A DNA stretch of 64,000 nt from NCBI GenBank assembly GCA_943372295.1, contig CALRYC010000005.1:64310-128309 (forward strand), in the 5' to 3' direction. The stretch is from Chitinophaga pinensis (lineage in GTDB: Bacteria; Bacteroidota; Ignavibacteria; Kapaibacteriales; Kapaibacteriaceae). Made by a program: the position numbers and the translations under genes. Position 1 is the first letter of the stretch; each line of letters begins with the position of its first letter. Below the pieces are notes generated by a model, which saw nothing but the letters and a program-made list of their open reading frames with translations, made no database searches and was not told the origin of the DNA. Below are positions 8,601 through 49,000 of the stretch, one piece after another.

Positions 8601-11121
8601 AGTAAGGACGGAACTCATTGATGCCACCCTTGATGAGTGACCCAATACCAATCGACACGATGCCATAACCGAATCCGTTGATCTCGTTTCCAACGAACTT
8701 GTTGTTGGTATTGATCAGCGTGTCGAGGTTTCCAAGGTTGTCTGGATTGATCGTGTCACGCTGTGTGATACCGGCAGTGTAGGAAATCGTTGTGTTCCGC
8801 GTGTTACCTTCAAAACGGAACTGATTCGATCCACTATTGAACTGTACCTGTGGCAATGAGTCGGCGTATGATGGTGTCACGCCTGCGGCGTTCTCAATCA
8901 AGATGTTCTGAATCGAGATGTTGGACGATCCTGACGAGAGGTAGAATACCGACACGAATGGCGACGGGAAGCTCGGCTGGATGTTCTTGCGCATTGTGAA
9001 TCTGATCGCCTTCTGCAAACCACCATCAAAGGTGATGTAGCCCGCAGAGTTAGCGTTCTGTGCATTCGAGAAGAATGTCGCGCGTTGAATTGCGTAGCTA
9101 TTGGAAGGTGCCGCGTTCTGACCGAACAGCACTCCAATGCCAGACTCAGTCACCATGTTGACGGTCACCGCCCCCTTGGCGATCGAACGTTCGATCGAAG
9201 GACGGAAGGTGATGGAGTTCGTAGCGCTGGTTCCAATAATGCGAGACGAAAGGTCGATAGCTGCCGTCGTGACGCCAGCTTTGGTCACGGTATAAGAAGC
9301 ATCCGTGAATTCAAAAACGACCGGTCCGCTTACGCCACGGAAGTAGAGCACATTCAGGGCTGAATCGATTGTCGGGAAGTTTCTTGGTCCGGGCACTGTA
9401 GTGCCGATTGTGTACAGACCATTGAGGTTCGGCTCTACCGTTCGCGTTACACACAGCTCATTGTTTCCTGGAACTGGATCTCCAGGGAACTCAACGCGGA
9501 AGCAGAAACGGTAGTCCCCGCCTTCTGTCGGAGTGAACGATGGGAAGGTATAGATCGCCTTGTTGAACTGACCAGCAGCGATGTCCGGTACGATGCCTGT
9601 CTGGTTGTAAACTTGCGTATTCGGAAGGCGCGTAATGATCAGTCGAACCGGAACGTTTGAAAGGTCTTGAATACCGTTGTTTTCGAACACGGCCTCCGGG
9701 CGGAATGAACGGCCTTGAATCAACGTCTGCAGATAGCTCGCTGCCGTGAGCGCCGGAACTGTAACCGCGTTGACAGCTGGTTCTTCGTTATAACCGACTT
9801 CGAAAACGATAGGAGCGGCGCCCGGACGTGGTAGACAGTCATTGAATGCGTTTTCGTCTGGAAACGGATCGACAAGTTCCGCACAAGCCGTTCCGCGGTG
9901 TAGACCGACAGGGTGGCCACCTGCGAACGGATTGAAGTTATCGAACGTCTGTGTCAGGCGCACGGCAGAAGCGATAGGTTCTGTTATATCGACCGTGTCA
10001 ACATATTCCTGAACACCGCTCGGAGCAAACAGGCGCACGATTCCGCGGAAAGCCTTCACGGTATCGAGACCTGAGTTCTGCAGAACGGCCTCAACTGGGA
10101 TAGGCGTTGTGTTTGGATACTTAAACCTGCGAGGGGGTTCATTGGTGGTCGGTGAACGGAGTTGACGTGTCGACACGTCGCGGTTCACAGCGATTGTAAA
10201 TGCACGTGCCCATTCATCAGCACAGGACTGTCCGGTTGGGACCGACCGCACAAGGACGATGTACTCACCACCAACACCGTTGGTTGTGTTCAAAGCAGCA
10301 CCAGCACCAGCCAGACGCCCGGTGGCAACTGTTGGCGATGATGTGAAGAGTTGTGGGAAAACTCCTGTTGTTGGAGCAACTGCTGTCCAGTCTGCTGAGT
10401 AGACCGTGTCCGTCAGAGGAGCTGGGCCGAAGATGCGATAGCGAAGAACGGTTTGCGCGCCGGCTGCTCCAGCACGGATGCTTACGCTTGGCATTGGACG
10501 GTTAGCAGTAGACCCGTCATAGATATTTCCGCGTGGGAGAATCGCCGAGCTGTCTGGGGTATCATTCGGAAACGTGCTGACGAATCCACCGATGATATCG
10601 AGGTTGTAATCTTCGCATTCACCGCCCACGGCACCCGGGAAGACGCATGGGTCATTAGGGCACGTGGCCGTATTTGTCTGGAGCATCACGCGAAGACGCG
10701 TGCGACCTGAGCGGGCGCTACAGTTCAGCGTGATATTCAGATTCGCCGCTCCCTGACCGAAGTCAGTGTACACTGTACAGAACTGGCGTTCTTCGGGTTG
10801 GAAGATTCCATCCTGGTCCAAATCGATCCACATGGCAAACACCTGTGTGCCAAAAGTGTTCGAGTTGACCGTTACTGCATTAGCAACACCACGAAACGCC
10901 GTAATTGCCGTTGTGGTGAAATACTCGTAACCGGACTGATTGTTAAAGTCCGACGTAGCCGAGGCACGGCTGAAGTTGCCGAACCGGAAGAAGGTAATAC
11001 CATTACCCCACCAGCCCGGTCCAAGCGTTGGACGGCAGTACTGCGCCGAGAGCTCAGAACCGGCGCCAAACATGGCGACGAGAACTAAGACTCTTAAAAG
11101 AACCGTGTAGAACCTGTTCAT
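5617..11121 (-). CDS. Giant secreted surface protein: GEVED-like N-terminal domain, parallel beta-helix repeats, Ig/CARDB-like repeats, T9SS type-A C-terminal sorting domain
   Basis: 1834 aa from ATG 11121 (MNRFYTVLLRVLVLVAMFGAGSELSAQ signal peptide; the track start at 11247 adds 42 aa). GGECEDYNLDI (GEVED-like). PbH1-like repeats (NNLIYNVRRAGIFAAYEDGVQIVGNRIYNV). C-terminus ISPNPVADASTVTFGL...GAYTLVVRSNGLAVSAAVTVSK fits the T9SS CTD pattern. Confidence 0.85.
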   Translation of the reverse strand: MNRFYTVLLRVLVLVAMFGAGSELSAQYCRPTLGPGWWGNGITFFRFGNFSRASATSDFNNQSGYEYFTTTAITAFRGVANAVTVNSNTFGTQVFAMWIDLDQDGIFQPEERQFCTVYTDFGQGAANLNITLNCSARSGRTRLRVMLQTNTATCPNDPCVFPGAVGGECEDYNLDIIGGFVSTFPNDTPDSSAILPRGNIYDGSTANRPMPSVSIRAGAAGAQTVLRYRIFGPAPLTDTVYSADWTAVAPTTGVFPQLFTSSPTVATGRLAGAGAALNTTNGVGGEYIVLVRSVPTGQSCADEWARAFTIAVNRDVSTRQLRSPTTNEPPRRFKYPNTTPIPVEAVLQNSGLDTVKAFRGIVRLFAPSGVQEYVDTVDITEPIASAVRLTQTFDNFNPFAGGHPVGLHRGTACAELVDPFPDENAFNDCLPRPGAAPIVFEVGYNEEPAVNAVTVPALTAASYLQTLIQGRSFRPEAVFENNGIQDLSNVPVRLIITRLPNTQVYNQTGIVPDIAAGQFNKAIYTFPSFTPTEGGDYRFCFRVEFPGDPVPGNNELCVTRTVEPNLNGLYTIGTTVPGPRNFPTIDSALNVLYFRGVSGPVVFEFTDASYTVTKAGVTTAAIDLSSRIIGTSATNSITFRPSIERSIAKGAVTVNMVTESGIGVLFGQNAAPSNSYAIQRATFFSNAQNANSAGYITFDGGLQKAIRFTMRKNIQPSFPSPFVSVFYLSSGSSNISIQNILIENAAGVTPSYADSLPQVQFNSGSNQFRFEGNTRNTTISYTAGITQRDTINPDNLGNLDTLINTNNKFVGNEINGFGYGIVSIGIGSLIKGGINEFRPYYNSGTEIRNNLIYNVRRAGIFAAYEDGVQIVGNRIYNVGLATGGTPRNVAGIMAGGEARYNNMNLFIAQNEISGVAGTTWTRGITVEQARNEYQTVTGTNKGFGPRSQGLVVFPNKAERTYITSNAVWGLTRASTTANLAGVHVYTTRATSASVVTALLTPNNAGYFMQGDSIVNNTIVINADAFLGNGALVGIGVQNSDGPVIMNNAIALNTAVNVDAITNSAIFYQGTIFRNGRVNTWYLPNTAPKSLVSNKNAFWTPNAGIGRVVEISHTSELVSAGSQTEFNTLAQWRNWTGQDINSPSGNFVAEHEFRGTAPNQQLRVRITPQAPIGSILNNNGERISGTKRDVENALRGEAGLGYDIGADEFSGRLYVSDLEVIDILKPASYRDATGPNSDAEYIMTTTPVDVTTRVRNNGALATTRSQVRVRVYLETPMSNNALMNPAQYNSFPIVDRVVTTNLSSGQSKDIQFNIPSWSPQTYFGMPGYNVPAQFSTMSMNVTPRYRVEVSVNADEFNSNNVFSKDVRFYVRQSKLRLLLSVRGSAVDILTGTPATNDIAARLNSDSLQKSLGDLGYINDPASGRFDFDVLDRANWAPRSVDYTIYQTMFWSHDLNPLTRSERDDIRNYLGSGAPGMKKNLAISAARVPSLHNGASIVSDLNFVQNALRCQLQNPGTPFSPNYSGRSIDGRAIARGNSELVTRTGFAGDPEPTPALVSMFSSGSTSGVVSAAYSYRRSDRSTADSIMGTATAAITANTVYLGVDWRHFARSSSPTVLRTGVERVVRGILDFFETNGGGLVPVQVASFDAKARGKNVDVFWSTASETALDRFEVERADLTSVKAGDITSDASYRVVRTVNATNASASHKDYSITDQNLAAGMYSYRLTSVDKDGSRATTSDVNVTIDGEGSGLWISTISPNPVADASTVTFGLAEAGRVEVVIVNMAGQEVATLVNEARSAGTHSVKFSAASIPSGAYTLVVRSNGLAVSAAVTVSK

Positions 11122-11272
11122 GGGATTCCCACAAGAAAATTGAACGTAACGTGTTTTGTTTGCTGTCAACTTCAGCTGGTATGGGGGTACCAGTGCCGCG
11201 GACCCGGTGTTGCGAGAAAGCCAAACCGACTCCACTGCGTCCAACAAAATATGCAGTCACCAAGTGAAAAGC

Positions 11273-21668: not shown

Positions 21669-23738
21669 ATGATCTTACGACTGTCCACTTTCGTACTCAT
21701 TCTGACAGCATCTCTGGCGGTCAATGCCCAGGACATGCGCAATGACATGTTCGGTGTGCGCCGCGCCGGCCACGAGCCCCGCCTGAGCAAACGTGCCGAT
21801 GTGACCCAGGTGGAGGATCGGCTGCGTCCTTTCTTTCATGGTGTTGCCAGTGGCGACCCGCTCAGCAACCGCGTGATCATCTGGACGCGAGTCACACCCG
21901 AGAACGGCCAGGAAAGTGTCGATGTTCAGTGGCGCGTGGCCACGGACCCATCCCTGACAAACATCGTCAGGCAGGGGGCTTTCGTTACCCGCGCGGATCG
22001 TGACTATACCGTCAAGGTGGATGTCGATGGCCTTGCGCCTGCCACTGTTTACTACTACGGATTCATCGCCTATGACCGTGCCTCTCTAACAGGGCGCACC
22101 CGCACCCTACCCATCGGTTCCGTGGACCATACCAAGCTTGCCGTGGTCTCGTGCTCCAACTACCCGGCAGGATACTTCACGGCCTATGGTTTCATTGCCG
22201 ATCGCAACGACCTGGATGCAGTTCTGCACCTTGGAGATTACATCTACGAGTATGACGCTGATACCGCATCCTTCGGCGGAACCACAGGTGCCAGGCTCGG
22301 ACGCTTGCATCTGCCAGACGCCGAACTCGTAAAGCTGACGGATTATCGCACACGCTACAGTCAGTATCGGCTTGATCCTGATCTGCGGCGTCTGCACCAG
22401 CAGCATCCTATGATCCACGTCTGGGATGATCATGAATCGGCCAACGACTCGTACACGGATGGTGCTCAAAATCACCAGGTAGACGAAGGTGACTGGAACG
22501 TCCGCAAGGCCGTGTCACGTCAGGCCTGCAACGAATGGATGCCTACGCGCGAATCTTCTGACGGTGCCATCTATCGCCGGTTTGTCATCGGCGATCTTGT
22601 CGATGTATCGATGATCGACACACGTCTTGAGGGTCGTAACAAGCAGATTGAAGAGGTAGGGCCTTCTGCCTCGCAAGCCGCCAAGGATGCCATCAACGAT
22701 CCGAACCGGAAGATCATGTCGGCGACGCAGTTTGGCTGGCTCACGGGAAATCTCACTTCGAGTCAGGCCCGCTGGAAACTCGTTGGCAACCAGGTGATCT
22801 ATTCGCCGGTAAACGTCACGCCGATTGACACCAACTACCTGTTCGCCTCCATCGGCCCCCTGTTCACCGCGATCCTGCGGCCACAGCTTCCGTCGCTGCA
22901 GACCGTTTTTGAACAGGCGTTCTATGGTGATGTCTGGAGCAACTATCCCGCCCAGCGCCGTGAGCTCAGCACGCTGATGCGCAGCAGTTCTGTCGAGAAT
23001 GTTGTGATCGTCACGGGCGACTTCCACTCAACCTTCGCTATGGAAGTCCCGATCGAAAATGGCGAGAAGATCAAGCCCGTTGCCGTCGAGTTCATTACGC
23101 CGAGCGTTACCTCGTCGAACTTTGATGAAAACTTCTCTGCCGTTGCAGGACTGAGCGTTATTCAACCGCAGCTTCTGAAGACCGTCGATACCACGCTGAC
23201 GCAGCGAAACGGACACATGAAGTGGAACAACATCACTGATCATGGCTACATGATCGTATCGTTCTTTCCTGACTCCGTCCAATCCGACTGGTACTTTATC
23301 AAGAGTCTCACAGAGCGCCCCACGGCACAGCGTCGGGAAAGGGGTTACCGTAGCCTCTCCGGTACACACCAGCTTCAACGGTCAGGGTCGGCAGCGCCCG
23401 GCAAGAGCGTGCAGGATGTGCCGGCACCGAATGATCCGCCGATCATAACATCTGTTGGTGAGACTGCCCACAGTCCTTCTTCCGTTACGATCCTCAGCTG
23501 TGGCCCTAATCCCACACGCGATGCATATGCCCTGTCATATGTGGTCTCACAGCCAGCCCTTGTCACCATTCGCATCCGTGATCTGCGCGGCTCGGTGGTA
23601 TGGAGCAGCAGTTCGGCCACCGAGCATGGTCTGCACAGCATCGTCATCGGACTCGCAGACCTACCATCGGGAAGCTATCGTCTGGAGGTTTCCGACGGGA
23701 ACAGCACTGCCGGCGCGGGCTTTATCCGCCAGAAGTAA
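21669..23738 (+). CDS. phoD: PhoD-family alkaline phosphatase/phosphodiesterase with T9SS C-terminal sorting domain
   Basis: 689 aa. Signal peptide MILRLSTFVLILTASLAVNAQ. FHGVASGDPLSNRVIIWTRV and LHLGDYIYEY (PhoD/metallophosphatase motifs). C-terminus CGPNPTRDAYALSYVV...GSYRLEVSDGNSTAGAGFIRQK is CTD-like. Confidence 0.85.
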   Translation: MILRLSTFVLILTASLAVNAQDMRNDMFGVRRAGHEPRLSKRADVTQVEDRLRPFFHGVASGDPLSNRVIIWTRVTPENGQESVDVQWRVATDPSLTNIVRQGAFVTRADRDYTVKVDVDGLAPATVYYYGFIAYDRASLTGRTRTLPIGSVDHTKLAVVSCSNYPAGYFTAYGFIADRNDLDAVLHLGDYIYEYDADTASFGGTTGARLGRLHLPDAELVKLTDYRTRYSQYRLDPDLRRLHQQHPMIHVWDDHESANDSYTDGAQNHQVDEGDWNVRKAVSRQACNEWMPTRESSDGAIYRRFVIGDLVDVSMIDTRLEGRNKQIEEVGPSASQAAKDAINDPNRKIMSATQFGWLTGNLTSSQARWKLVGNQVIYSPVNVTPIDTNYLFASIGPLFTAILRPQLPSLQTVFEQAFYGDVWSNYPAQRRELSTLMRSSSVENVVIVTGDFHSTFAMEVPIENGEKIKPVAVEFITPSVTSSNFDENFSAVAGLSVIQPQLLKTVDTTLTQRNGHMKWNNITDHGYMIVSFFPDSVQSDWYFIKSLTERPTAQRRERGYRSLSGTHQLQRSGSAAPGKSVQDVPAPNDPPIITSVGETAHSPSSVTILSCGPNPTRDAYALSYVVSQPALVTIRIRDLRGSVVWSSSSATEHGLHSIVIGLADLPSGSYRLEVSDGNSTAGAGFIRQK

Positions 23739-25068: not shown

Positions 25069-27087
25069 TCAGTGCAGGACGCTGAAGCTGGCGGTCAGCG
25101 AGCCCCCTATCACGAAGTAGGTTCCCGGCGGCCACGAGGAGACATCAATCGACGTCGAGAGCGTTGAGTCGACGTCAGCCGAGGCTACAATCGCACCAAG
25201 GAGATTGACGACCACAAGCCGAGCCGGCCGTGGCGATGTTAGCCGCACGACATCGCGTGCCGGAACTGGACGAACAGTGACCTTACCTTCGGCCGACAAT
25301 TCCGGTTGAACATCGGTGATCTCGTCAGGGAATCGCACGTGATAACGCGTCCATGTCTCGGAGCACCACTGCGCAAGGACCTCGTTCTCTGCTCCACCGA
25401 GTGGACGGATGATCAGAGCATCACCCTCCATGTATTCCGCGGTGGTGATGATCTCCCCACCACCGTTCGGGTTGAATATCGACTGACATACCGCATCGTG
25501 TGTAGAGATGAATCGGTTACCACTGCTGACCGGCGAACAAAGGTCTCGCGTCCTGGCCTGCGCGGACGCACCTGATGCTCCTCCACTGGCCCAGTGATCC
25601 TTCTTTTCGTACCGACCGAGCATGATCTGGAAGGTCTCCCAGCATCGGCAGACGGGTGATGAGAATGCTTCGCCCTGTGGCACTCCCAGCATCCGCTGGG
25701 CCTTGCCGATCTCGTCACACTGCTCACGTCCTTCAGCAATGAGATTGCGTCCAGGGAAGCATTCCGGCGCCGGCCCCTTGTCCTTCTGATCCCAGTCCGT
25801 CTTACCATGTCGGTACATGAAGACCAGTCCGCCCTTGCGCATCTCGGCCATTGCTTCGCGAAAGCCCAAACGCCCTTCCTCACGTTGCGCTTCATAGGCA
25901 CCGACGTCAAGTTTCCGACCCACAAGTCGAGGATTGCCCAAGATGTCGTGCTGACGGTGATTGACGTACGTATCAAGGTAGCCTCCATCTCGTCCGATGG
26001 ATCCGGGCAGGAGAACCAGTCCATCATCATCTGTGCCATGGATGTCATCGGCACCATCGACATCGTCTACGCTCGCAAAGTCCGGAGCAAACTGCCAGAA
26101 GCCATAGACAAAGTCGCGCTCAATCACGTTTGCACGTCCCACCAGCTTCGAGGTGTCTCCCTGCGGCACAAGCTGGAGTACGTGCGATGTGGTGTCCTCA
26201 TCCTCATTCCACATCAGACAGTTCTGGATGACACCGGCACTTATCGCGACAGACTTTCCACCGAGGACCGACGAGCCCGACAGGGTATTGCCAGAGAAGG
26301 TACTGTTGTTGAGATACACATCCGACGACTCCGAACCGATCGCTCCTGCGGCGTCCTCTGCGCTGTTACCGGCGAACACCGATGAGGTGATCTGGGTGGT
26401 GCCGGGACAATCAGCTATGTAGAGTCCGCCACCCCGTTGTGCGATGCAGCTCACGAAGAAGCACTGCCCGATGAAAGGCCCCCACTGGCGGTTCCATGCC
26501 GCACTTGTGATGTCAGAATTCAGAAACACCGCACCACCGAATCGGTCAGCCTTGCAATCCTCAAACACACAATACTCGATCTGAATGCGCCCGCCCCCTG
26601 TCATGCGAATGGCCGCGCCGTCGGTAGTCGTTGAACAGGATCGAAAGTGGTTGTTGAAGATGCGAGGAGCTCCACCGTTAACAAGCACGGCCGTTGATCG
26701 AGTACCCTGCAGAACAAATCCATCGATCCTCGTGATCGAATCGCATGCCGTGAGCATGAAGATGCTCGCCCCCATAGATGAGTTCAGCACGGTGCGCTGG
26801 CGGTACCAGTCGCGCTGTTCACGTTGGGTCTCGTTGCCCTTAAAGCCTCCGTAAATGCGCATACCATTGGATACTGGGTATCCGGCCTGCGGGATTTGAT
26901 ACTGTCCGGCAGCGCACCAGATCTCATCGCCCAGCTGCCACTTGGCAAGAGCATCCCCGATTGATGAGAATGCCGTGGACCACGACTGACCATTGCCACC
27001 CACGGAGGCACTCGGTGCCACATAGAGTGTGTCGGCCACACAGGTTGCAGAAACGATGAACAAGGCAGCAATCAGGGGGCGAAGCAT
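25069..27087 (-). CDS. Secreted fusion protein: parallel beta-helix domain + histidine phosphatase (PGAM/SixA-like) domain + T9SS C-terminal sorting domain
   Basis: 672 aa from ATG 27087 (MLRPLIAALFIVSATCVADT). The beta-helix part ends with DVGAYE. Then LVFMYRHGKTDW...SSPVCRCWETF...ISTHD (RHG and downstream His motifs of the histidine phosphatase superfamily). C-terminus VRPVPARDVVRL...GTYFVIGGSLTASFSVLH is CTD-like. Confidence 0.7.
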   Translation of the reverse strand: MLRPLIAALFIVSATCVADTLYVAPSASVGGNGQSWSTAFSSIGDALAKWQLGDEIWCAAGQYQIPQAGYPVSNGMRIYGGFKGNETQREQRDWYRQRTVLNSSMGASIFMLTACDSITRIDGFVLQGTRSTAVLVNGGAPRIFNNHFRSCSTTTDGAAIRMTGGGRIQIEYCVFEDCKADRFGGAVFLNSDITSAAWNRQWGPFIGQCFFVSCIAQRGGGLYIADCPGTTQITSSVFAGNSAEDAAGAIGSESSDVYLNNSTFSGNTLSGSSVLGGKSVAISAGVIQNCLMWNEDEDTTSHVLQLVPQGDTSKLVGRANVIERDFVYGFWQFAPDFASVDDVDGADDIHGTDDDGLVLLPGSIGRDGGYLDTYVNHRQHDILGNPRLVGRKLDVGAYEAQREEGRLGFREAMAEMRKGGLVFMYRHGKTDWDQKDKGPAPECFPGRNLIAEGREQCDEIGKAQRMLGVPQGEAFSSPVCRCWETFQIMLGRYEKKDHWASGGASGASAQARTRDLCSPVSSGNRFISTHDAVCQSIFNPNGGGEIITTAEYMEGDALIIRPLGGAENEVLAQWCSETWTRYHVRFPDEITDVQPELSAEGKVTVRPVPARDVVRLTSPRPARLVVVNLLGAIVASADVDSTLSTSIDVSSWPPGTYFVIGGSLTASFSVLH

Positions 27088-27098
27088 CACAGGAACCC

Positions 27099-29171
27099 TC
27101 AAGGAAGAGAGATAATCGATCGGACGCGCCACTGCGGTCCGTAACGTACAGCATGAAAATAGGCACCTGCTGGTGCCGATTCACGGGAAAACACGCGGCC
27201 CAGAACATCGACCAGCATCTCCTGATCCGGTGTTGTTTCAAAGAACTCCGATTCGTCTCGGTAGTTACCCACGGGAACGCTGCTGATCAGCTGCGGCAGC
27301 GACCACACGCCATCGGTCGTGCTGAACACGAACCAGCCCGGCATGTGAGCGCAGGCGATCACGGGGCTCGCGGTGGGCAGTTCAGCGGGCTGCATGACCC
27401 AGCGTTCGGGACGTACCATCACGGCCGGACCCGTGCGTCCGTCCATGCCTCGGGCCCACGCAGCGGCCTCGACTCCGGCATCGTCGATAGGCGTGAGGAG
27501 CTCGATATCGGTATCGACCTCATTCCATGTGATGCCGGCGTCGCGGCTCACCATAAGCCACCGTCCAAGGTTGATGATGAGCGTGTTGTCGATATAATTC
27601 ACCGATCGCAACGTGACAAATCGTGCCGGTGCGGACTCAACAACTGTAAGGTCGAGAAAGAATGGATTTCCCTCCCTGTCGTACGCGTCTACCGAAACTC
27701 TCGCGTCCTGCTCACTTCCCGGTACACTCTGGATGTTGACCACGAAGATCGTATCGCTCACAACCGTCATTCCGGCACCGATCGCACCGGAGATGAGAAC
27801 ACGCGACAACGAGTCTGCCGGGCCTCGCACTTCGATCCCACGAGTGGTCTGCATGTAAACAAAATCACCGGATTTTACGGCACCATATCCTGGCCGCTGC
27901 TGCACGCGCCGCATATCCGGATAAGAGAAGATTCCCTGCGAGGTTGTCAGCCAGACCTCATTGCCAACTCTGCGCAGGGCTTCATGACCCGGGCTGGCAG
28001 ATCGTACATCGACGGTGTCACAGGTGGATGCTCCCGGCACAATAGTGCTCATTGCATCCGACACCCCGAGGCCTTGAACTCGAAAGTGTCCAGCCAACGT
28101 GACATTCGATCCCGAAAGCATCAGGCGAGACCCACGACTTACGCTCCCCGCTGTTGATTGATTGATGCCATAGGAGAAGTCGGGAGCATCAATCAACTTG
28201 AAGGTGTACCAGAGTGTTCCGTCCTGCCGCGACAGCAGGCAATCCGCATTGCGAGTCCAAAGGATTCTATGCGTAGAGGAGAAAAGCAGACCGTTCACCA
28301 GATACCGTTCGACGTTCTCCAGAGTTACATCGGGAGCAAACTCGATCCCACCGTTCGCTATTCGGGCTGCAGACCTTCCGTTGACACTGACATCCTGCAG
28401 TCTTTCGCTGAGAACACGCATTGGGCGAACCGTGCCTGCATGATCTATGAACGTACCCTTTGATGTCTGGTAGGCAAAGGCATCACTCTCGCCAACCTTG
28501 CCATAAATGACTTCGGGAAGCTCGGCCGTCACCCAGTCGATCGGAGTCTTTCCTGCTCCGGAGCGGATCACCTCGCAGATCGCCATACCGCTACCGAGAT
28601 CAACAGCAATGATCGAGTCGCCACACTGACGCACCCTTGTGGCCGGCCAGTTGCGTACACGGGCCATTTCAATTGATCGAATGAGCTGTCCTGACGAATC
28701 GTATGCGTCGACGACCATGGGGCGATCGGGCTCGCTGGCGCTAAAGAGCAGTATACCCCCGGCGCTGCACAGAAACTGACCCGATGCGGGTATAGCCGAA
28801 CTGTCTGACCAGATCATCGCTGATGGCTTGGATCGAAAGAGCCACCATGACGTATCCCTTTGCCCTTGCCGCTTGGCAACCACGGCAATCTGGTCGTTTG
28901 TTGCCGATACAGTATAGGCAGTTCCGCAGCGGTACAGCTCTGGTAGTGCCTGCCACTGCTGGTAGCGGTTCTGATCCGTGCCGCGATAGACCGTATTCTG
29001 GTCGATCAGCCAACGGGCTATTCCCGAGACAGCAACGGAAGTGATGCCCTGAGAGAATCCGGTGGTTACCGGAAGCCTCAAAGGCCTTTGGGCGCGCACG
29101 TCATGCGTCGGAACGAGCAACATTACTGTTGCCGCAAGGGTCCACTGGAGCATTGACACCATCGAGATCAT
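27099..29171 (-). CDS. Hypothetical secreted protein, probable beta-propeller, one Asp-box, possibly a degenerate T9SS CTD
   Basis: About 690 aa. Hydrophobic N-terminus ...MLQWTLAATVMLLVPTHDVRAQ. SRDAGITW matches the BNR/Asp-box SxDxGxTW. C-terminus MLVDVLGRVFSRESAPAGAYFHAVRYGPQWRVRSII resembles the distal half of a T9SS CTD. The TTG track start (29186) lies inside the rpoC terminator stem, so ATG 29171 is preferred. Confidence 0.55.
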   Translation of the reverse strand: MISMVSMLQWTLAATVMLLVPTHDVRAQRPLRLPVTTGFSQGITSVAVSGIARWLIDQNTVYRGTDQNRYQQWQALPELYRCGTAYTVSATNDQIAVVAKRQGQRDTSWWLFRSKPSAMIWSDSSAIPASGQFLCSAGGILLFSASEPDRPMVVDAYDSSGQLIRSIEMARVRNWPATRVRQCGDSIIAVDLGSGMAICEVIRSGAGKTPIDWVTAELPEVIYGKVGESDAFAYQTSKGTFIDHAGTVRPMRVLSERLQDVSVNGRSAARIANGGIEFAPDVTLENVERYLVNGLLFSSTHRILWTRNADCLLSRQDGTLWYTFKLIDAPDFSYGINQSTAGSVSRGSRLMLSGSNVTLAGHFRVQGLGVSDAMSTIVPGASTCDTVDVRSASPGHEALRRVGNEVWLTTSQGIFSYPDMRRVQQRPGYGAVKSGDFVYMQTTRGIEVRGPADSLSRVLISGAIGAGMTVVSDTIFVVNIQSVPGSEQDARVSVDAYDREGNPFFLDLTVVESAPARFVTLRSVNYIDNTLIINLGRWLMVSRDAGITWNEVDTDIELLTPIDDAGVEAAAWARGMDGRTGPAVMVRPERWVMQPAELPTASPVIACAHMPGWFVFSTTDGVWSLPQLISSVPVGNYRDESEFFETTPDQEMLVDVLGRVFSRESAPAGAYFHAVRYGPQWRVRSIISLP

Positions 29172-29185
29172 TGCGCAAAATGACA

Positions 29186-29215
29186 AAGGGGCGACTCGTT
29201 TCCGAATCGCCCCTT
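29186..29215 (-). terminator. Putative intrinsic terminator after rpoC
   Basis: Minus strand AAGGGGCGATTCG-GAAA-CGAGTCGCCCCTT (13-bp stem with one G.U), followed by TGTCATTTTG. Lies 24 nt past the rpoC stop. Confidence 0.5.
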
Positions 29216-40705: not shown

Positions 40706-40745
40706 CTCATGTCCTCCGATCTGCGGTAAGCATTCGTAAACGTTG

Positions 40746-40818
40746 CACGGGCGGCAGGATTCGAACCCGCGGCCTGCGGTTTTGGAGACCGCTGCTCTAC
40801 CAGCTGAGCTACACCCGT
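40746..40818 (-). tRNA. tRNA-Trp (anticodon CCA)
   Basis: Acceptor ACGGGTG/CGCCCGT, anticodon stem GCGGT/ACCGC with loop CTCCAAA, T-loop TTCGAAT. 73 nt. Canonical position just upstream of secE. Confidence 0.9.
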
Positions 40819-40837
40819 ACGTGATTGTCAAATCAAG

Positions 40838-40910
40838 AGCTGATGACCGGGATTGAACCGGTGACCTCCACCTTACCAAGGTGGTGCTCTACCAACTGAG
40901 CTACATCAGC
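40838..40910 (-). tRNA. tRNA-Thr (anticodon GGT)
   Basis: Acceptor GCTGATG/CATCAGC, anticodon stem CCACC/GGTGG with loop TTGGTAA, T-loop TTCAATC. 73 nt. Confidence 0.9.
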
Positions 40911-40988
40911 GACATGGTCTGTCGCAGACACCAAAGCCCTTCAGCGCACAGACCAATGGCCCGACGCCTCAGGGGACTTTCGCATCAG

Positions 40989-41061
40989 AGCGGGAGACGA
41001 GACTCGAACTCGCGACCAACAGCTTGGAAGGCTGTGACTCTACCAACTGAGTTACTCCCGC
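40989..41061 (-). tRNA. tRNA-Gly (anticodon TCC)
   Basis: Acceptor GCGGGAG/CTCCCGC, anticodon stem ACAGC/GCTGT with loop CTTCCAA, T-loop TTCGAGT. 73 nt. Confidence 0.9.
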
Positions 41062-41094
41062 ATGTACAGCCATTGCTCGCGCAGATGGCGGCTG

Positions 41095-41177
<83 letters not shown>

Positions 41178-43029: not shown

Positions 43030-45975
43030 TTACTGGACCACGAGCGGCTCTGACGTCACAGAACCCGTCATGCTCCTTGCCACAACTCGATAGTAGCCTG
43101 CGGACAGATGTGAAATGTCGAGAGCCAAGCTGCCTTCAACGCCGTTCTCTGATGCCAGAACACGACCGTTGACATCAACGATGTGCACACCTTCGCATCG
43201 CTCGCGCAGCCAGATCTCTACACGCCCATCCGTGACCGGATTATTCAAAAGCGTCAGCATCTGGCGGCTACCCTCTTCGTCAACCGACGTCGTGGAGCCG
43301 AACTCCAACCGGTACCATGGCGTTCGATGTTCGGCTGTTGACAGAAGCGCTGTGAACTTTCCGCCTGTACGTTTCGCGACGCCGATCCGTGTGCCAGTGG
43401 GCCGACCGTCAAATCCAAGCGGTATGATCGTCAGCGAGTCAAAGGTTGGCGCCGTCAGCGTGATCCGCATCGAGACGCCCTCCATCTGCACCGGCCCCTT
43501 GCCCCAAACACGGAGATTCTGATTCATATCATCGAAGATCGCTCCTGCATTCAGCGCCCGTGTGCTGATGGTCAGCAGTGCCCGTTCTGATTGTCCAAGG
43601 GGCTTTACTGTCTGCGAAGCAATGGCTACCATGGCATGAGGAGCTGTGGTTGTCTGTTCAACAGACATGCCCGACATGGTAATGATCTGACCTGTTAGCG
43701 GCCCCATCACGGCGCAGTGTGTGGGCGTCTCGACTCGCAGGATACTCTTGGTGGCGTCGCGGAATATCTGCCCATTCTCTGCATCAAGAGCCGCAAGATC
43801 CACATCGCCCGAGAGTGCCGATACTTCAAGATGCGGCAGGAACGATGACTGAGGCATTAGCGTCTGATTGATCGACACACGGCGGAATAGCGGGATGCGC
43901 TGATCGGTGTTGACAGTCAGTCCGAACGGTGACTGCACATGAAACTGTGGCAGTGTGACGGATTCAGCAGAGTGATCGATGACGAGTTCCTTGGCCGACG
44001 GCACAACGGCACCGCTGCGCATCAGTGACGACGTCCATGGGAACATCGAGAGAACATTCGGCTTGTTGCGAAGCATCCAGTAGTCGAGGGAGTCGACCGT
44101 CGTTCCTCCGATACGCCCGTTGTCCGACAACACACTGAAGAACACTCCGTCCCAGTCCTGCAGGCCGGCATAAGACGGCAGGTAGGCCATCAGCTCCGAC
44201 ATATGCGGACGTGGATACTGCACAGATGCGTGAGATACGACAAAGGCCTTGCCCTTGGGACGCACCTGAGCGTGAGCATAAAGGCCTCCGCCGTATGGAT
44301 CTGCAGCGATACTGCCAGCCTCTGAGCGCCATTCGACATTGGAAAAGACGTCGTACTCACGGGCGGCATCCAGCTCATAGAAGCTCACAAGTCGAGAAGA
44401 CGGACACAGCAGCACCTGACTCTTGAGTGTATCACGGACCATTCGACGAATGCCCGTCAGCATCGACCGGAAGTTCTCGTAAACAAAGCGTGCATTGTCC
44501 TTTGCACGGCCAACCGTGATCTCACCGTCGAGCAACGTCGACATGCGAATGTTGTTCATTCCAAGATTCTCTCCGCTGCGAACACCGCTGCGAGTGACCT
44601 CGCGCAGCTGAACGTCATCAACAAACACATCTCCTGAATCTGCACCAAGGAAGAATCCCAGCCCGGCTGTCGTTGAGTCCGATACCGTGGCCGTGAAGGT
44701 GTAGGTGTACTTCTTCCATGCCGAGGAGATCGCCATGGTCTGCGCAAGCCCGTAGGAGTTGTAGGGTGGGGTGCCGTTGAACACATACAGGAAGATCTCG
44801 CGGCTGCCACGCTGCGGGGTCGTCTTTGCCCAATAGCTGAGCTCGTAGGTCTGAAGATGCCGCATGACTGGCAGGCGCTGCACGAGCTGGATGGAATAGG
44901 ATGCGCGGCCAGGATCAAGCCTGTTGATGCGAACACGGCCCGAAGATGTGCCTTGCTGCTTGTCGGCATCACTGAACTGGAGCAGCGCTTGCGCCCCCCT
45001 CGTATTGTCGATGCTCAAGATCCAGGCACTGTTGAACGGATCTTCGAAGTCGCCGTTAAGAACCACATTCTGGGTCGATCTGGCCGTTGACTGCCAGGCG
45101 CTGGCTAGGGCTGCATCTGTCTTGTATGTCGACTCAAGCCAGGCATTCCACAGAGAGTCAATATGGGCAACGTGCAGCTGTCCCGTCGATGTTGTCGAGC
45201 CATTCGGGTTCGGGCGAACAATGTCGTTTGTATACAGCCAGAACGCAGCCGGCGAGGCATCCTCAGCAGCGATGACATACGCAAGTGCAGGATCATCCTT
45301 ATAGGCGATGTCCGTAAACGTGTTTACGTGCGAAAGCAGTGCACGCACGACGTCTCGTTGAATCTGCTGAATGCGGCGATTGAACAAGACCGGAACGCGC
45401 GCGCCCCATCCGGTGGAATCCGGCTGCAGCACGCCATCGCCCTGACGTGGCGTCCACGTGGACTGGAAGGTGAAGACGTAGTAGATACCGTGCTGGCGAA
45501 GCTGGTGCATGAACCAGTCGAATTTTTGCATCTGTACGGGGTCAAGACCATCCTGCAACGTCGATGGCGTGCTGGCACGGAAGATGCTCACCGCAGACCA
45601 GACGTTCACGTCAAAGCTGTTAAGCCGAACACAGTTGATTCCGAGTGCTCGAAGCCGACGTGCAATTACAACTGCATTCGCACTGTCGGGCATTGCCGTG
45701 AGCCACTGCAGTGTTGTGCCAACCAATCGCAGGCGTGACCCATCGGCAAATCCCAGATGTCCATCGGAGGTGAGAACCACACGCCCCCTGGCACCGGCAA
45801 CCTCAGCCGGCATCGCTACAAGCGACGTATCGAGGTCCGCCTCGTGGTCGATCGCAAATGGATACGGATTGGCAAGGGGCTGAGCATTCATCGTGATGCC
45901 GGCACCGAACAGTGCACACAGCGCGATCATCGATGGCAGAAGTCGGCGAGACTTACAGGACATTGAAAACCTCAT
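43030..45975 (-). CDS. Secreted TIM-barrel (clan GH-A-like) protein with CBM4_9-like module and T9SS C-terminal sorting domain
   Basis: 981 aa. Sec signal MRFSMSCKSRRLLPSMIALCALFGAGITMNAQ. GINCVRLNSFD...HGIYYVFTF...AYVIAAEDASP is GH5-like, but AE replaces the expected NE. NVVLNGDFEDPFNSAW...YELSYWAKT (CBM4_9-like). C-terminus LLNNPVTDGRVEIWL...AGYYRVVARSMTGSVTSEPLVVQ. ATGA overlap with the DUF1501 stop. Confidence 0.7.
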   Translation of the reverse strand: MRFSMSCKSRRLLPSMIALCALFGAGITMNAQPLANPYPFAIDHEADLDTSLVAMPAEVAGARGRVVLTSDGHLGFADGSRLRLVGTTLQWLTAMPDSANAVVIARRLRALGINCVRLNSFDVNVWSAVSIFRASTPSTLQDGLDPVQMQKFDWFMHQLRQHGIYYVFTFQSTWTPRQGDGVLQPDSTGWGARVPVLFNRRIQQIQRDVVRALLSHVNTFTDIAYKDDPALAYVIAAEDASPAAFWLYTNDIVRPNPNGSTTSTGQLHVAHIDSLWNAWLESTYKTDAALASAWQSTARSTQNVVLNGDFEDPFNSAWILSIDNTRGAQALLQFSDADKQQGTSSGRVRINRLDPGRASYSIQLVQRLPVMRHLQTYELSYWAKTTPQRGSREIFLYVFNGTPPYNSYGLAQTMAISSAWKKYTYTFTATVSDSTTAGLGFFLGADSGDVFVDDVQLREVTRSGVRSGENLGMNNIRMSTLLDGEITVGRAKDNARFVYENFRSMLTGIRRMVRDTLKSQVLLCPSSRLVSFYELDAAREYDVFSNVEWRSEAGSIAADPYGGGLYAHAQVRPKGKAFVVSHASVQYPRPHMSELMAYLPSYAGLQDWDGVFFSVLSDNGRIGGTTVDSLDYWMLRNKPNVLSMFPWTSSLMRSGAVVPSAKELVIDHSAESVTLPQFHVQSPFGLTVNTDQRIPLFRRVSINQTLMPQSSFLPHLEVSALSGDVDLAALDAENGQIFRDATKSILRVETPTHCAVMGPLTGQIITMSGMSVEQTTTAPHAMVAIASQTVKPLGQSERALLTISTRALNAGAIFDDMNQNLRVWGKGPVQMEGVSMRITLTAPTFDSLTIIPLGFDGRPTGTRIGVAKRTGGKFTALLSTAEHRTPWYRLEFGSTTSVDEEGSRQMLTLLNNPVTDGRVEIWLRERCEGVHIVDVNGRVLASENGVEGSLALDISHLSAGYYRVVARSMTGSVTSEPLVVQ

Positions 45976-47591
45976 CGAGCGATCTGAATTGTGGTATGGG
46001 TGACGGTTCTGCCTGCGTGCAGCGAGATGACATAGGTCCCACTGGAAAGGCCCTGCAACTCGAGCCGCGCAACGCCTGTCCAGGCGTCTACCGGCGCAGA
46101 GGCCTGCCGGCCCCCTCGCAGATCGGTCAGGACAAGATGGGCATCCGCATTCTGATCGATGTTTACGCGTACGACCACGAAGTCGGAAGCCGGGTTGGGT
46201 CCGACGCTAATGAACGTTGCACGCGGATCGGCATCATTGACGCTAACGGGCTTCGACTTGAAGAGCTCGGGAGCTCGTGATCCAAAATCCCTGAAAAGTA
46301 GCTGCTGCTGGGTGCTGGCGGGCACGCCGAACCACTGCAGAAGCACACTCGCATACACATCGCGATAGTCATACTGCATCAACATGTCCCCGATCGGATC
46401 GAGGTTGACAAGGTCCGGGTTGCTGCCGTAGATCTTTCCACCATTGACCTGCGCGCCGAAGGCAAACAGAGGAGCGGCCGTACCGTGGTCGGTGCCAACG
46501 CTGCCGTTTTCGTACACCCGGCGTCCGAACTCGGAGAACGTCATCCCCGATACGCGCTGATCGTGACCGCGATTCTTCATCTCCTGCATGAATACCTGAA
46601 CGGCATCCCCGAGCTCACGCAGCAGGTTTGAATGCGTTCCCAGGGTCGCGTCGTCGGTTGACGTCTGGCTAGCGTGCGTGTCAAAGTTGTTGTTGGCCCA
46701 CGAGATCAGGAAGATCCGCGAGCGCAGTCCGCCACTGATCAGCTGCGAGACCACCTTGAGCTTGGCACCGATGTCGGTGGTTGGGAAGGTGACAGTCGGC
46801 GTGCCGGATTTGTCATTGGCGTCTTTGACGACCGAGGCATAGACATCGGCGCTACGCGCGATGTTCCGCATAAAGGTCACCTCACGTCCGGCCGGTGAAT
46901 CGGACTGTTCACTGCTCGGCACCTCACCGGCACCGCCGCCGCCATTGACCAGTCGATAGAACTCATCAGGATCACGGAAGCTGATGCCCATCGGGCCGGC
47001 AGCTCCAAGTAGTCCGAGGGACGTGGCATTACCGATCTGCACCGCCAGCGGATGTGCCGGCAGTTCCGTCGGATAGGAGGGGGCCAGCGTCTGCAGGTAA
47101 CGTCCAACCCACCCTGTCGAACCCATGACATCGGCATCGGTAGCCGTCAGCCAGATATCCGTTCCGCGGAAATGCGACCGATCAGGGTTGGGATACGTCA
47201 CACCCTGCACAATGGCGAGCTTACCCTCATCGTACAAAGCACGGAAACCTGTAAGCGCCGGATGCCAGCCAAGAGTATCGTTGATACGAAGCGTCTTGTT
47301 CTTCGGGATGGCGATCGTCGGACGCCTGTCATAGTAGAGCGGATCCGAGTGCGGCACAACGGTGTTGAGGCCATCATTGCCCCCTGCCATCTGGATCAGA
47401 ACAAGCACACGGTCCTGCTCTTCCAGAAGCTGGTGCAGGCGTGGATCGCCCCCTGCCATAGCCTGAATGCTTAACGAGTCGATGAGCGTCGGCAGCGTAG
47501 CCACGGCCATACTGCCGCCAGCCGCACTACGCAAGAATGAGCGCCGATGCATTCGACGTTCGGACGACTGATCGTTTGATGGAGTTTTCAT
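45972..47591 (-). CDS. DUF1501 (sulfatase/phosphatase-superfamily-like) protein with twin-arginine signal and T9SS C-terminal sorting domain
   Basis: 539 aa from ATG 47591 (MKTPSNDQSSERRMHRRSFLRSAAGGSMAVATL...). HRRSFLR fits the S/T-RRxFLK Tat motif. VLIQMAGGNDGLNTVVP and GTDHGTAAPLFAFG are DUF1501 hallmarks. C-terminus VGPNPASDFVVVRVNID...GTYVISLHAGRTVTHTTIQIAR is CTD-like. Confidence 0.85.
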   Translation of the reverse strand: MKTPSNDQSSERRMHRRSFLRSAAGGSMAVATLPTLIDSLSIQAMAGGDPRLHQLLEEQDRVLVLIQMAGGNDGLNTVVPHSDPLYYDRRPTIAIPKNKTLRINDTLGWHPALTGFRALYDEGKLAIVQGVTYPNPDRSHFRGTDIWLTATDADVMGSTGWVGRYLQTLAPSYPTELPAHPLAVQIGNATSLGLLGAAGPMGISFRDPDEFYRLVNGGGGAGEVPSSEQSDSPAGREVTFMRNIARSADVYASVVKDANDKSGTPTVTFPTTDIGAKLKVVSQLISGGLRSRIFLISWANNNFDTHASQTSTDDATLGTHSNLLRELGDAVQVFMQEMKNRGHDQRVSGMTFSEFGRRVYENGSVGTDHGTAAPLFAFGAQVNGGKIYGSNPDLVNLDPIGDMLMQYDYRDVYASVLLQWFGVPASTQQQLLFRDFGSRAPELFKSKPVSVNDADPRATFISVGPNPASDFVVVRVNIDQNADAHLVLTDLRGGRQASAPVDAWTGVARLELQGLSSGTYVISLHAGRTVTHTTIQIAR

Positions 47592-47608
47592 GGTACTCGT
47601 CTCCCTGG

Positions 47609-49000
47609 TCACATCAATTGAAATTCCGGCATCCGCACGATGGCCTGGATCAGGAACCGCGCACGCTGAACGGCTGAAGGGGCGTTGACGTCCCATTCAT
47701 ATTTCTGCGCGCCGGCAAGCATGATCTCCAGTAGTACATCGTGTTGCTGCTTGGTGATCGGCATCGGAAGCAGCACAGTCGCAACGTTCGTGACGACCTT
47801 CTCGGCATCGTTGGCATCCGGTAGCTGCTTCAAGAAGGCGATCACATCCGGTACGAGTACCGTGCCGGCCTCATCGACAAGCTTGGTAGAGCTACCAATC
47901 TGACGTCCGTCAACAAAGCTTTCGCCAAAACGCTGCCGCTGCGGGAAGGTGGAACTGGTGATCCATGCGTGATGCCCCTTCCATCCCTCAACCGTCGGCG
48001 GATAGAAGGGCTCCTGCGTAAGGCGTGTCATAACCTGTGATACATACTGGCGACTGACCGACGTCGCATTGAGGGCCGAGGCCAGACCAACGACGAGCTC
48101 GAGCGGACTCTTGATCAATGCACCACGCAGATTCGGTGTGAAGAAGTACTCGCTGGATAGAAGAGTCTGCAGCACCGGCCGGATCTTGTATTCACTGCCG
48201 CGCAGGAGCGTCGCCACCGCCTCGATAGCCTCGGTCGAAGGCTCATGTTCAACGTACGTGCGCAGCAGCTTGCGTGCTATGAAACGCGCGCAGGCCGGCT
48301 GCCTGAGCGTGATGTCGATCACGTCTTTCCATTCCCATGTGCCGGTCTGACCCAGAATGGTCTTCTCCCCGAGGTCTGCCAGCTGACGGTTATAGCTGCC
48401 TACTAGCCCTGTAATACGCCAGCCCGTAAATGCCCGGGCTGCCTCAAGGACGTCGGACTCAGTGTAGTTGCCAATGCCAAGAGAAAAAAGTTCGAACCAC
48501 TCACGGGCGAAGTTCTCGTTGGCACGCCCCTTGATGCTCTGATCGCCATTGAGGTAGCGAAGCATGGCTGCGTCTCCGACGATCCGTCGCGATATCTCAG
48601 AATAATCGTAAGCATTCGTGCGCAGCATCTGATGCTGGGCCACCATCCAGTGTGACACGTACACATTCAAATAGTCACTCGTGAACGTACTGTGCCAGAG
48701 CATGACCAGTCGCTCGCGAGGTGAGGTGACCGTCAGCACACGATCAAGCCACCAGTTCTGCATCTCGATAAACAGGCGATACGCTTCGTTAAAGTCGGTA
48801 ATGTTTGGGGTCTGCAACGCCCACATTGGCGATGGGAAAGGGGCTTCCGGAGCATCCAGCAGAGCCGCGACGGCCTCCGATGGACGCTTCCCAATAACGC
48901 TTGCAGCAAGCGCATACGTCGGCTGAAGCGTCATGCGGCGCATGAGGTGAAAGGCCTCGTCGAGCGTTAGCGGACTGGTTCGTTCGCGCAGATCGGCCAT
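47609..49000 (-). CDS. DUF1800 family protein
   Basis: 463 aa. LVMLWHSTFTS, DAAMLRYLNGDQSIKGRANENFAREWFELFSLGIGNYTESDVLEAARAFTGW match the DUF1800 signature as recalled. No obvious N-terminal signal peptide. Confidence 0.8.
   Translation of the reverse strand: MADLRERTSPLTLDEAFHLMRRMTLQPTYALAASVIGKRPSEAVAALLDAPEAPFPSPMWALQTPNITDFNEAYRLFIEMQNWWLDRVLTVTSPRERLVMLWHSTFTSDYLNVYVSHWMVAQHQMLRTNAYDYSEISRRIVGDAAMLRYLNGDQSIKGRANENFAREWFELFSLGIGNYTESDVLEAARAFTGWRITGLVGSYNRQLADLGEKTILGQTGTWEWKDVIDITLRQPACARFIARKLLRTYVEHEPSTEAIEAVATLLRGSEYKIRPVLQTLLSSEYFFTPNLRGALIKSPLELVVGLASALNATSVSRQYVSQVMTRLTQEPFYPPTVEGWKGHHAWITSSTFPQRQRFGESFVDGRQIGSSTKLVDEAGTVLVPDVIAFLKQLPDANDAEKVVTNVATVLLPMPITKQQHDVLLEIMLAGAQKYEWDVNAPSAVQRARFLIQAIVRMPEFQLM

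Follow-up and report, generated by a model that had tools for sequence, protein, structure and literature searches.

In a 64-kb stretch of a Kapabacteria genome (contig CALRYC010000005.1; hereafter the window), a minus-strand operon at positions 43030–49000 encodes a DUF1501 protein that opens with a twin-arginine signal and closes with a type IX secretion system (T9SS) sorting domain. Both elements are conserved throughout the family, and the protein is a so far unreported candidate for export by twin-arginine translocation (Tat) across the inner membrane, followed by the T9SS across the outer membrane. This predicted route is the best-supported mechanism, and we favor it with moderate confidence. 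It would extend the two-step secretion known for Tat and the type II secretion system (T2SS). A preliminary description of this DNA, made from the letters and their translations, had recognized three co-directional genes, the first two separated by 17 nt and the second and third overlapping at ATGA. Coordinates and sequence agree with that layout, which runs from DUF1800 through DUF1501 to a gene for a 981-aa protein, with the following features.

47609–49000, minus strand: DUF1800 gene (463 aa; PF08811, E 1.7e-87), product mostly α-helical and without a signal peptide
47592–47608, minus strand: 17-nt spacer between DUF1800 and DUF1501, read from the sequence
47600–47605, minus strand: Shine-Dalgarno-like GGGAGA, ending 9 nt before the DUF1501 ATG
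45972–47591, minus strand: DUF1501 gene (539 aa; PF07394, E 2.6e-22), with a predicted Tat signal, an alkaline-phosphatase-superfamily core and a T9SS type-A C-terminal sorting domain
47454–47591, minus strand: predicted Tat signal peptide, DUF1501 residues 1–46 (R16-R17 at 47541–47546)
46251–47420, minus strand: predicted alkaline-phosphatase-superfamily catalytic core, DUF1501 residues ~58–447, from alignment and Foldseek
45975–46217, minus strand: T9SS type-A C-terminal sorting domain, DUF1501 residues 459–539 (PF18962, E 3e-4; TIGR04183, E 5e-4)
43030–45975, minus strand: third gene (981 aa; 977 aa from the ATG at 45963), with a signal for the general secretory (Sec) pathway, a split GH5-like barrel, a CBM4_9 module and a C-terminal sorting domain

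The DUF1501 reading frame begins MKTPSNDQSSERRMHRRSFLRS, and the N-terminus of its product is MKTPSNDQSSERRMHRRSFLRSAAGGSMAVATLPTLIDSLSIQAMA. Residues 15–21 (HRRSFLR) fit the S/T-RRxFLK consensus; the hydrophobic region (h-region) reads AAGGSMAVATLPTLI, and A44-M45-A46 is the predicted cleavage motif. The strong twin-arginine motif first ascribed to this protein is thus present, and the family keeps it: RRxF lies near the start in 117 of the 120 best homologues (46–100% identity), the other three being N-terminally truncated entries. Across a 35-sequence alignment spanning 46–80% identity, R16, R17 and F19 are invariant, while the remaining signal positions vary. A different start codon that would remove the motif had been named as a concern, and every plausible start proved to retain it. 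The longer start considered (574 aa, ATG at 47696) was rejected for its 88-nt overlap with DUF1800; homologues, which start at MK... or MxRR, give it no support, and the Shine-Dalgarno-like site precedes the ATG at 47591. Scored as the best 10-residue Kyte-Doolittle value, the h-region has a median hydrophobicity of 1.88, compared with 2.95 for the Sec signals of neighboring T9SS cargo. A Lys or Arg stands beside the AxA motif in 73 of 116 relatives (63%), a known Sec-avoidance feature; the window protein has none. Signal length among relatives has a median of 33 aa. Gene calls on 11 metagenome contigs yield the identical 539-aa protein, and its best matches (79–89% identity) carry the name Candidatus Kapabacteria.

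At the other end of the protein, the extension of about 80 aa that had been likened to a type-A T9SS C-terminal domain (CTD) was substantiated by both family alignment and fold. TIGR04183 matches all 35 aligned DUF1501 members at E ≤ 0.01 (best 3.1e-10), and PF18962 matches 33 of them (best 4.8e-11). In the AlphaFold 2 (AF2) model, residues 459–537 form a seven-strand β-sandwich with a predicted local distance difference test (pLDDT) score of ~80–90 for the block. Foldseek placed this domain on the CTD of mirolase (8qb1, chain 8qb1_A; template modeling (TM) score 0.74) and on that of NucA in a T9SS complex (8glk_D; TM 0.71). In the alignment, PNP and GxY motifs can be recognized, and the final residue is basic. 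The domain is absent from homologues outside T9SS phyla: those from Thermus, Actinomycetota and Proteobacteria are 394–457 aa long, and one from a Latescibacterota genome has 480 aa. DUF1501 bears a twin-arginine signal in each of the lineages examined; judged from these sequences, it has in addition acquired the CTD in T9SS-bearing phyla, including the Kapabacteria genome of the window.

One homologue with the domain, at 34.5 bits by TIGR04183 (cut-off 23), resides in a complete genome labeled gammaproteobacterium and named Glaciecola amylolytica (CP034120.1; locus L077), where signal peptides are cleaved before Gln. A CTD in a true gammaproteobacterium was rejected, as a PorT/SprT-like gene is found at the same locus, together with two further proteins that exceed the TIGR04183 cut-off. 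The locus looks Bacteroidota-like, and the record may be mislabeled.

Between the two export elements, the protein looks like a metal-dependent enzyme of the alkaline phosphatase superfamily, phospho- or sulfo-esterase-like, as predicted from its model and motifs. The family assignments made beforehand for the first two genes both hold, with PF07394 matching DUF1501 at 80 bits (cut-off 27) and PF08811 matching DUF1800 over its full length at 294.7 bits (cut-off 26.1). The motifs GGNDGLN, RSHFRGTDIW, FDTH and GTDHG are invariant in the 35-sequence alignment, and the Foldseek matches of the model comprise LtaS/LtaP, S1 sulfatases and NPP (E ~1e-4, probability 0.96–1.0). Within the conserved positions, D73, S139, D304/H306 and D368/H369 are consistent with a metal site. 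Sequence searches of the PDB returned nothing meaningful for DUF1501. Motifs and Foldseek matches together fit the preliminary suggestion of a folded metalloenzyme.

Several observations weigh against Tat-then-T9SS export of such an enzyme. Pfam annotation of the window, including 20 other open reading frames, revealed no tatA/tatC or T9SS machinery gene. For the function of DUF1501 and DUF1800, the literature yielded genomic mentions only, and no experimental data were found. The AF2 model of DUF1501 is moderate (pLDDT 71), and its Foldseek TM scores to the enzyme core are low (0.28–0.39). In the window protein, the matches to both export elements are significant (E 3e-4 to 2e-3) yet lie under the curated cut-offs: PF10518 scores 18.6–20.7 bits against 22.7 (E 3.8e-4), TIGR01409 10.6 against 16.7, PF18962 21.5 against 27, and TIGR04183 20 against 23. 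The profile searches suggested for the Tat signal and for the CTD therefore gave a divided answer, with the E values standing and the cut-offs missed. A full-length NCBIfam scan returned no TIGR01409 match at E ≤ 1, the weak matches coming from N-terminal fragments only, and this model reaches E ≤ 0.01 in only 5 of 35 relatives; a Stygiobacter homologue exceeds its cut-off (24.9 bits). In a Cytophagales subclade, RH, RK, RA or RQ replaces RR, and RK also occurs at a few loci elsewhere. The substituted loci (L010, L018, L027 and L051, from Spirosoma, Runella and Cytophagaceae, and L029, L053, L070 and L072) retain FL and the h-region, and the CTD is kept in all. Because these loci keep the CTD, the RR pair is not indispensable everywhere. 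The doubt raised by the sub-cut-off Tat and CTD scores is removed by the conservation of both elements across the family.

The low Tat scores and the substituted loci also speak for an ordinary Sec-then-T9SS cargo, whose RR signal would be used by Sec or by either pathway and whose twin arginines would have been inherited without routing effect in T9SS lineages. Every T9SS cargo that has been studied by experiment is a substrate of Sec, and the window itself contains a PhoD-like phosphatase, from a classic Tat-substrate family, that combines a Sec signal with a CTD. We consider this explanation unlikely in view of the RRxF motif, which stays invariant over 46–80% identity while adjoining signal positions vary. 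The h-region is likewise far less hydrophobic than the Sec signals in the same genomes, and the basic residue beside AxA in 63% of relatives points the same way. The PhoD-like family supplies the textbook Tat substrate of Bacillus; its CTD-bearing member in the window was weighed as another possible combination of Tat signal and CTD but discarded on account of the Sec signal. Five CTD open reading frames, DUF1501 included, lie within the window. The other four are indirect evidence for T9SS machinery in the genome, and all of them (the third gene of the operon and the first three entries below) carry Sec signals. A classical Sec signal is also found on every other CTD open reading frame in the fetched loci whose N-terminus lies inside the locus.

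5617–11247, minus strand: GEVED/Ig-like protein of 1876 aa with a T9SS CTD, without a twin-arginine motif
21669–23738, plus strand: PhoD-like phosphatase with a T9SS CTD (PF09423, E 1e-96), Sec-type signal MILRLSTFVLILTASLAVNA-Q
25069–27132, minus strand: β-helix and histidine-phosphatase (His_Phos) protein with a T9SS CTD, Sec-type signal, without a twin-arginine motif
27099–29186, minus strand: 695-aa open reading frame without a Pfam match, adjoining the β-helix CTD protein

A second alternative concerns the C-terminal β-sandwich, which could be an accessory Ig-like domain on a DUF1501 protein that stays periplasmic, as in other phyla. Besides the shortfall of both CTD models in the window protein, FlgD_ig is also matched by three relatives, and unrelated Ig-like domains are also among the Foldseek matches. 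We regard this reading as quite improbable: the domain sits at the extreme C-terminus, TIGR04183 recognizes every aligned member, some above cut-off, and the PNP and GxY motifs, the basic last residue and the fit to the mirolase and NucA CTDs are those described above. Its taxonomic pattern argues in the same direction, as the domain is missing in homologues from Thermus, Actinomycetota, Proteobacteria and Latescibacterota, and the sole "proteobacterial" complete genome that has it also holds other T9SS CTD proteins and the adjoining PorT/SprT-like gene.

The combination of signals extends well beyond the window. A scan with one genome per species recovered 599 relatives, and gene linkage was counted in the best 80 loci of the 599. 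A CTD ends DUF1501 in 77 of these 80 loci, RR is present in ~70, and DUF1800 is the immediate upstream neighbor in ~77; across 72 related loci, the two genes lie a median of 17 nt apart. DUF1501 proteins with signal and CTD occur in many Bacteroidota as well as in Kapabacteria, Ignavibacteria, Chlorobiota and Rhodothermia. The cultured organisms among the carriers include Pedobacter lithocola, Daejeonella, Longitalea, Spirosoma and Cesiribacteraceae YIM B00369; metagenome-assembled genomes that carry the family include some placed in Chitinophaga pinensis and in other Chitinophaga. The core of the system is the two-gene DUF1800–DUF1501 module, which is widespread in bacteria. The preliminary description had taken the three genes as a unit and suggested a survey of CTDs and of neighboring carbohydrate-binding or TIM-barrel genes; the pair and its CTD held, whereas the third gene follows the pair in only 3 of the 80 loci (L004, L005 and L036) and on shared contigs, all within a close Kapabacteria/Ignavibacteria subclade. 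Directly downstream of DUF1501-CTD in 19 Chitinophagales-type loci (L012, L016, L024, L035, L038 and L039 among them) is instead a TonB-dependent receptor with CarboxypepD_reg, Plug and barrel domains. Of the preliminary picture, the two signals are upheld by their joint conservation across these five groups, and the glycan-binding partner drops out as a general part of the system.

DUF1800, the near-constant companion, yielded a high-confidence AF2 model (pLDDT 92.7, predicted TM score 0.91) that is mostly helical. Foldseek found no relative of this fold among PDB chains (best E 0.47), and a PDB sequence search likewise found no relative. Its invariant polar residues include NENxxRE, D183, D209 and K213. 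In keeping with the original observation that no signal peptide is visible, a stop codon lies four codons upstream of the ATG, so an N-terminal extension is impossible, and throughout the clade of the window protein (≥47% identity, ~90 sequences) DUF1800 starts at the conserved domain without a signal. Its own stop codon is TGA, followed after exactly 17 nt by the DUF1501 ATG. A signal-less DUF1800 encoded beside an RR-bearing DUF1501 corresponds, at the level of the genes, to a Tat hitchhiker pair.

More distant pairs were compared in 14 outgroup records from plasmids and chromids, 13 of them from other phyla and one from Bacteroidota (Chondrinema). The adjoining DUF1501 has an RR signal in all 14, and in seven the DUF1800 protein carries an export signal of its own. 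This is a Sec signal in Paraburkholderia, Phyllobacterium, Photobacterium, V. campbellii and Novosphingobium, and a lipobox in Cupriavidus CH34 and Sphingomonas; the seven records without a signal are from Paracoccus, Azospirillum, B. cenocepacia, R. tropici, Chondrinema, Miltoncostaea and Thermus. Because half of the outgroup proteins bear a Sec or lipoprotein signal, DUF1800 appears to have an extracytoplasmic role in every case that permits a judgment, and co-export on the DUF1501 signal is then the simplest reading for the signal-less versions. The hitchhiking first suggested for this operon has gained plausibility from these records, and on sequence grounds DUF1800 most likely travels in this way.

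A rival assignment would keep DUF1800 in the cytoplasm as a factor for the maturation or proofreading of DUF1501, with a role like that of the TorD/DmsD-type Tat chaperones, so that only DUF1501 is exported. The missing signal in the clade of the window protein, the mostly helical fold and the tight coupling of the two genes are all compatible with such a factor. So are the N-termini of many relatives: M-x-RR-x-F-L opens 34 of the 77 DUF1800 genes in the species loci and is followed by a charged, non-hydrophobic stretch (median hydrophobicity −0.03 vs 1.59 for the DUF1501 signals), and this h-region-less RRxFL could be a remnant signal. NarG, which is not exported, carries a remnant Tat signal. 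In the RRxFL variants, which come from Chlorobiota and Bacteroidota (L006, L007, L008, L011, L012 and some 30 further loci; P0320–P0343), M-x-RR-x-F-L fits the twin-arginine consensus perfectly, but a charged linker of 30–45 aa replaces the h-region; the window DUF1800 has no such extension. The Sec and lipoprotein signals of the outgroup proteins speak against a chaperone, and 463 aa with many invariant polar residues resemble a functional subunit more than a small chaperone. We therefore hold the chaperone role to be possible, if doubtful, and retain co-export with DUF1501 as the preferred reading. A bolder variant of co-export, which we offer as an unlikely conjecture, is that the T9SS takes a pre-assembled, Tat-exported DUF1800:DUF1501 heterodimer. 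A signal-less protein would then cross both membranes on the signals of its partner, and the RRxFL element of DUF1800 in many Bacteroidota would offer the Tat receptor a second site of docking and not be a decayed signal.

For the third protein, the Sec signal, GH-A-like barrel, CBM4_9-like module and CTD were all located where the preliminary description had put them, the mapped parts being these.

Residues 1–32, third protein: Sec signal
44635–45069, minus strand: CBM4_9 insert, residues 303–447 (CBM_4_9, E 1.5e-7)
43033–43242, minus strand: T9SS CTD, residues 912–981 (PF18962, E 6e-5; 23.7 bits against a cut-off of 27)

The JGI gene call for this gene uses the next ATG, which gives the 977-aa version and an 8-nt gap to DUF1501. 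Its GH5-like barrel is split by the CBM4_9 insert, which matches the CBM4 structure 1gui (E 1.2e-5), and the N-terminal half of the barrel has weak similarity to GH5 mannanases in the PDB (E 2e-3). The likeness to endo-mannanases and cellulases of GH5 (clan GH-A) extends to distant relatives that match PF00150 at ~23% identity, some of which are named Planctomycetes (Thermogutta), Verrucomicrobia and Fibrobacteria. The difference lies in the catalytic residues. Where the PF00150-positive relatives read EINNEN and SEYNHP, the third protein reads IAAEDAS (residues ~236–242) and VSHASV (residues ~565–572), so the "AE instead of NE" remarked upon earlier is real. The Asn that precedes the acid/base Glu is lost, as is the nucleophile Glu, and the nucleophile position varies across the family (H/F/N/T/S/Y/L). 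Because the Asn is gone and the nucleophile position is not conserved, the protein probably serves in binding and not as a retaining glycosidase.

The operon is flanked by a divergent gene for a YfhO-like membrane protein on one side and by an HNH-endonuclease gene and then carA on the other, and a promoter and terminator scan was uninformative. Elsewhere in the window, the genes for tRNA-Tyr, Gly, Thr and Trp are clustered (40745–41177, minus strand) upstream of secE-nusG-rplK, with no tuf between tRNA-Thr and tRNA-Trp.

Sequences and models show both signals, how widely the family conserves them and the linkage of the genes, and they indicate the class of fold; we infer the dependence of DUF1501 on Tat and on the T9SS, the complex with DUF1800, the metal and the substrate. 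In the most likely course of events, the enzyme would fold in the cytoplasm, where it would probably bind its metal, and pass the inner membrane via Tat, after which signal peptidase I would cut behind AxA. DUF1800, tightly coupled on the same transcript, most likely binds DUF1501 before export and rides to the periplasm on the DUF1501 signal. The T9SS would then recognize the CTD and carry the enzyme over the outer membrane, to be anchored on the surface or released from it. There, DUF1501 probably scavenges an esterified nutrient; capture of nutrients at the surface is indicated by the neighbors, which are the TonB-dependent receptor in the 19 Chitinophagales-type loci and the CBM-bearing T9SS protein in the window.

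Parts of this proposal have counterparts among known systems. Secretion by Tat and then the T2SS is exemplified by the phospholipases PlcH and PlcN of Pseudomonas aeruginosa. The likeness is that Tat brings a protein across the inner membrane in the folded state and an outer-membrane system accepting folded cargo then takes it out; the difference is that the T9SS, addressed by a C-terminal domain, would perform the outer-membrane step here. Tat hitchhiker pairs such as the small and large subunits of [NiFe] hydrogenases or DmsA/DmsB share with DUF1501/DUF1800 a subunit with an RR signal and a tightly co-encoded partner without one; the DUF1800:DUF1501 complex is a predicted one. The h-region-less RRxFL that opens the signal-less DUF1800 of many relatives is absent in these classic pairs. 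Canonical type-A cargo of the T9SS (gingipain RgpB, mirolase and F. johnsoniae NucA) has the same ~80-aa C-terminal β-sandwich with TIGR04183/PF18962 similarity but is led by Sec signals, in place of the conserved twin-arginine signal of DUF1501. Secretion by Tat and then the T2SS has been stated in general terms (PMC4899797). The DUF1800/DUF1501 pairs of Proteobacteria, noted as conserved with a Tat motif on DUF1501 (PMC5122149), have the same families, gene order and RR signal; there, DUF1501 lacks a CTD, and a Sec or lipoprotein signal is often present on DUF1800 itself.

Reviews describe T9SS substrates as users of Sec (PMC9251779; PMC5837995), and the predictor T9GPred, based on 102 experimentally identified cargos, demands the absence of a Tat signal. 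In the literature searched, whose coverage is incomplete, we found no report of a Tat-dependent T9SS cargo, in line with the initial view of an undescribed route, and nothing usable on the Chitinophaga secretome. Pipelines such as T9GPred would discard the DUF1501-CTD family, since a Tat signal is excluded there.

If the proposed route is correct, the T9SS also accepts cargo folded in the cytoplasm, possibly metal-loaded or partner-bound, and a class of surface enzymes systematically escapes the predictors now in use. The presence of carriers in cultured organisms makes the export route testable. For two very large families, the analysis may provide a first functional handle: DUF1800 would work with DUF1501 beyond the cytoplasm, where the two probably scavenge nutrients.

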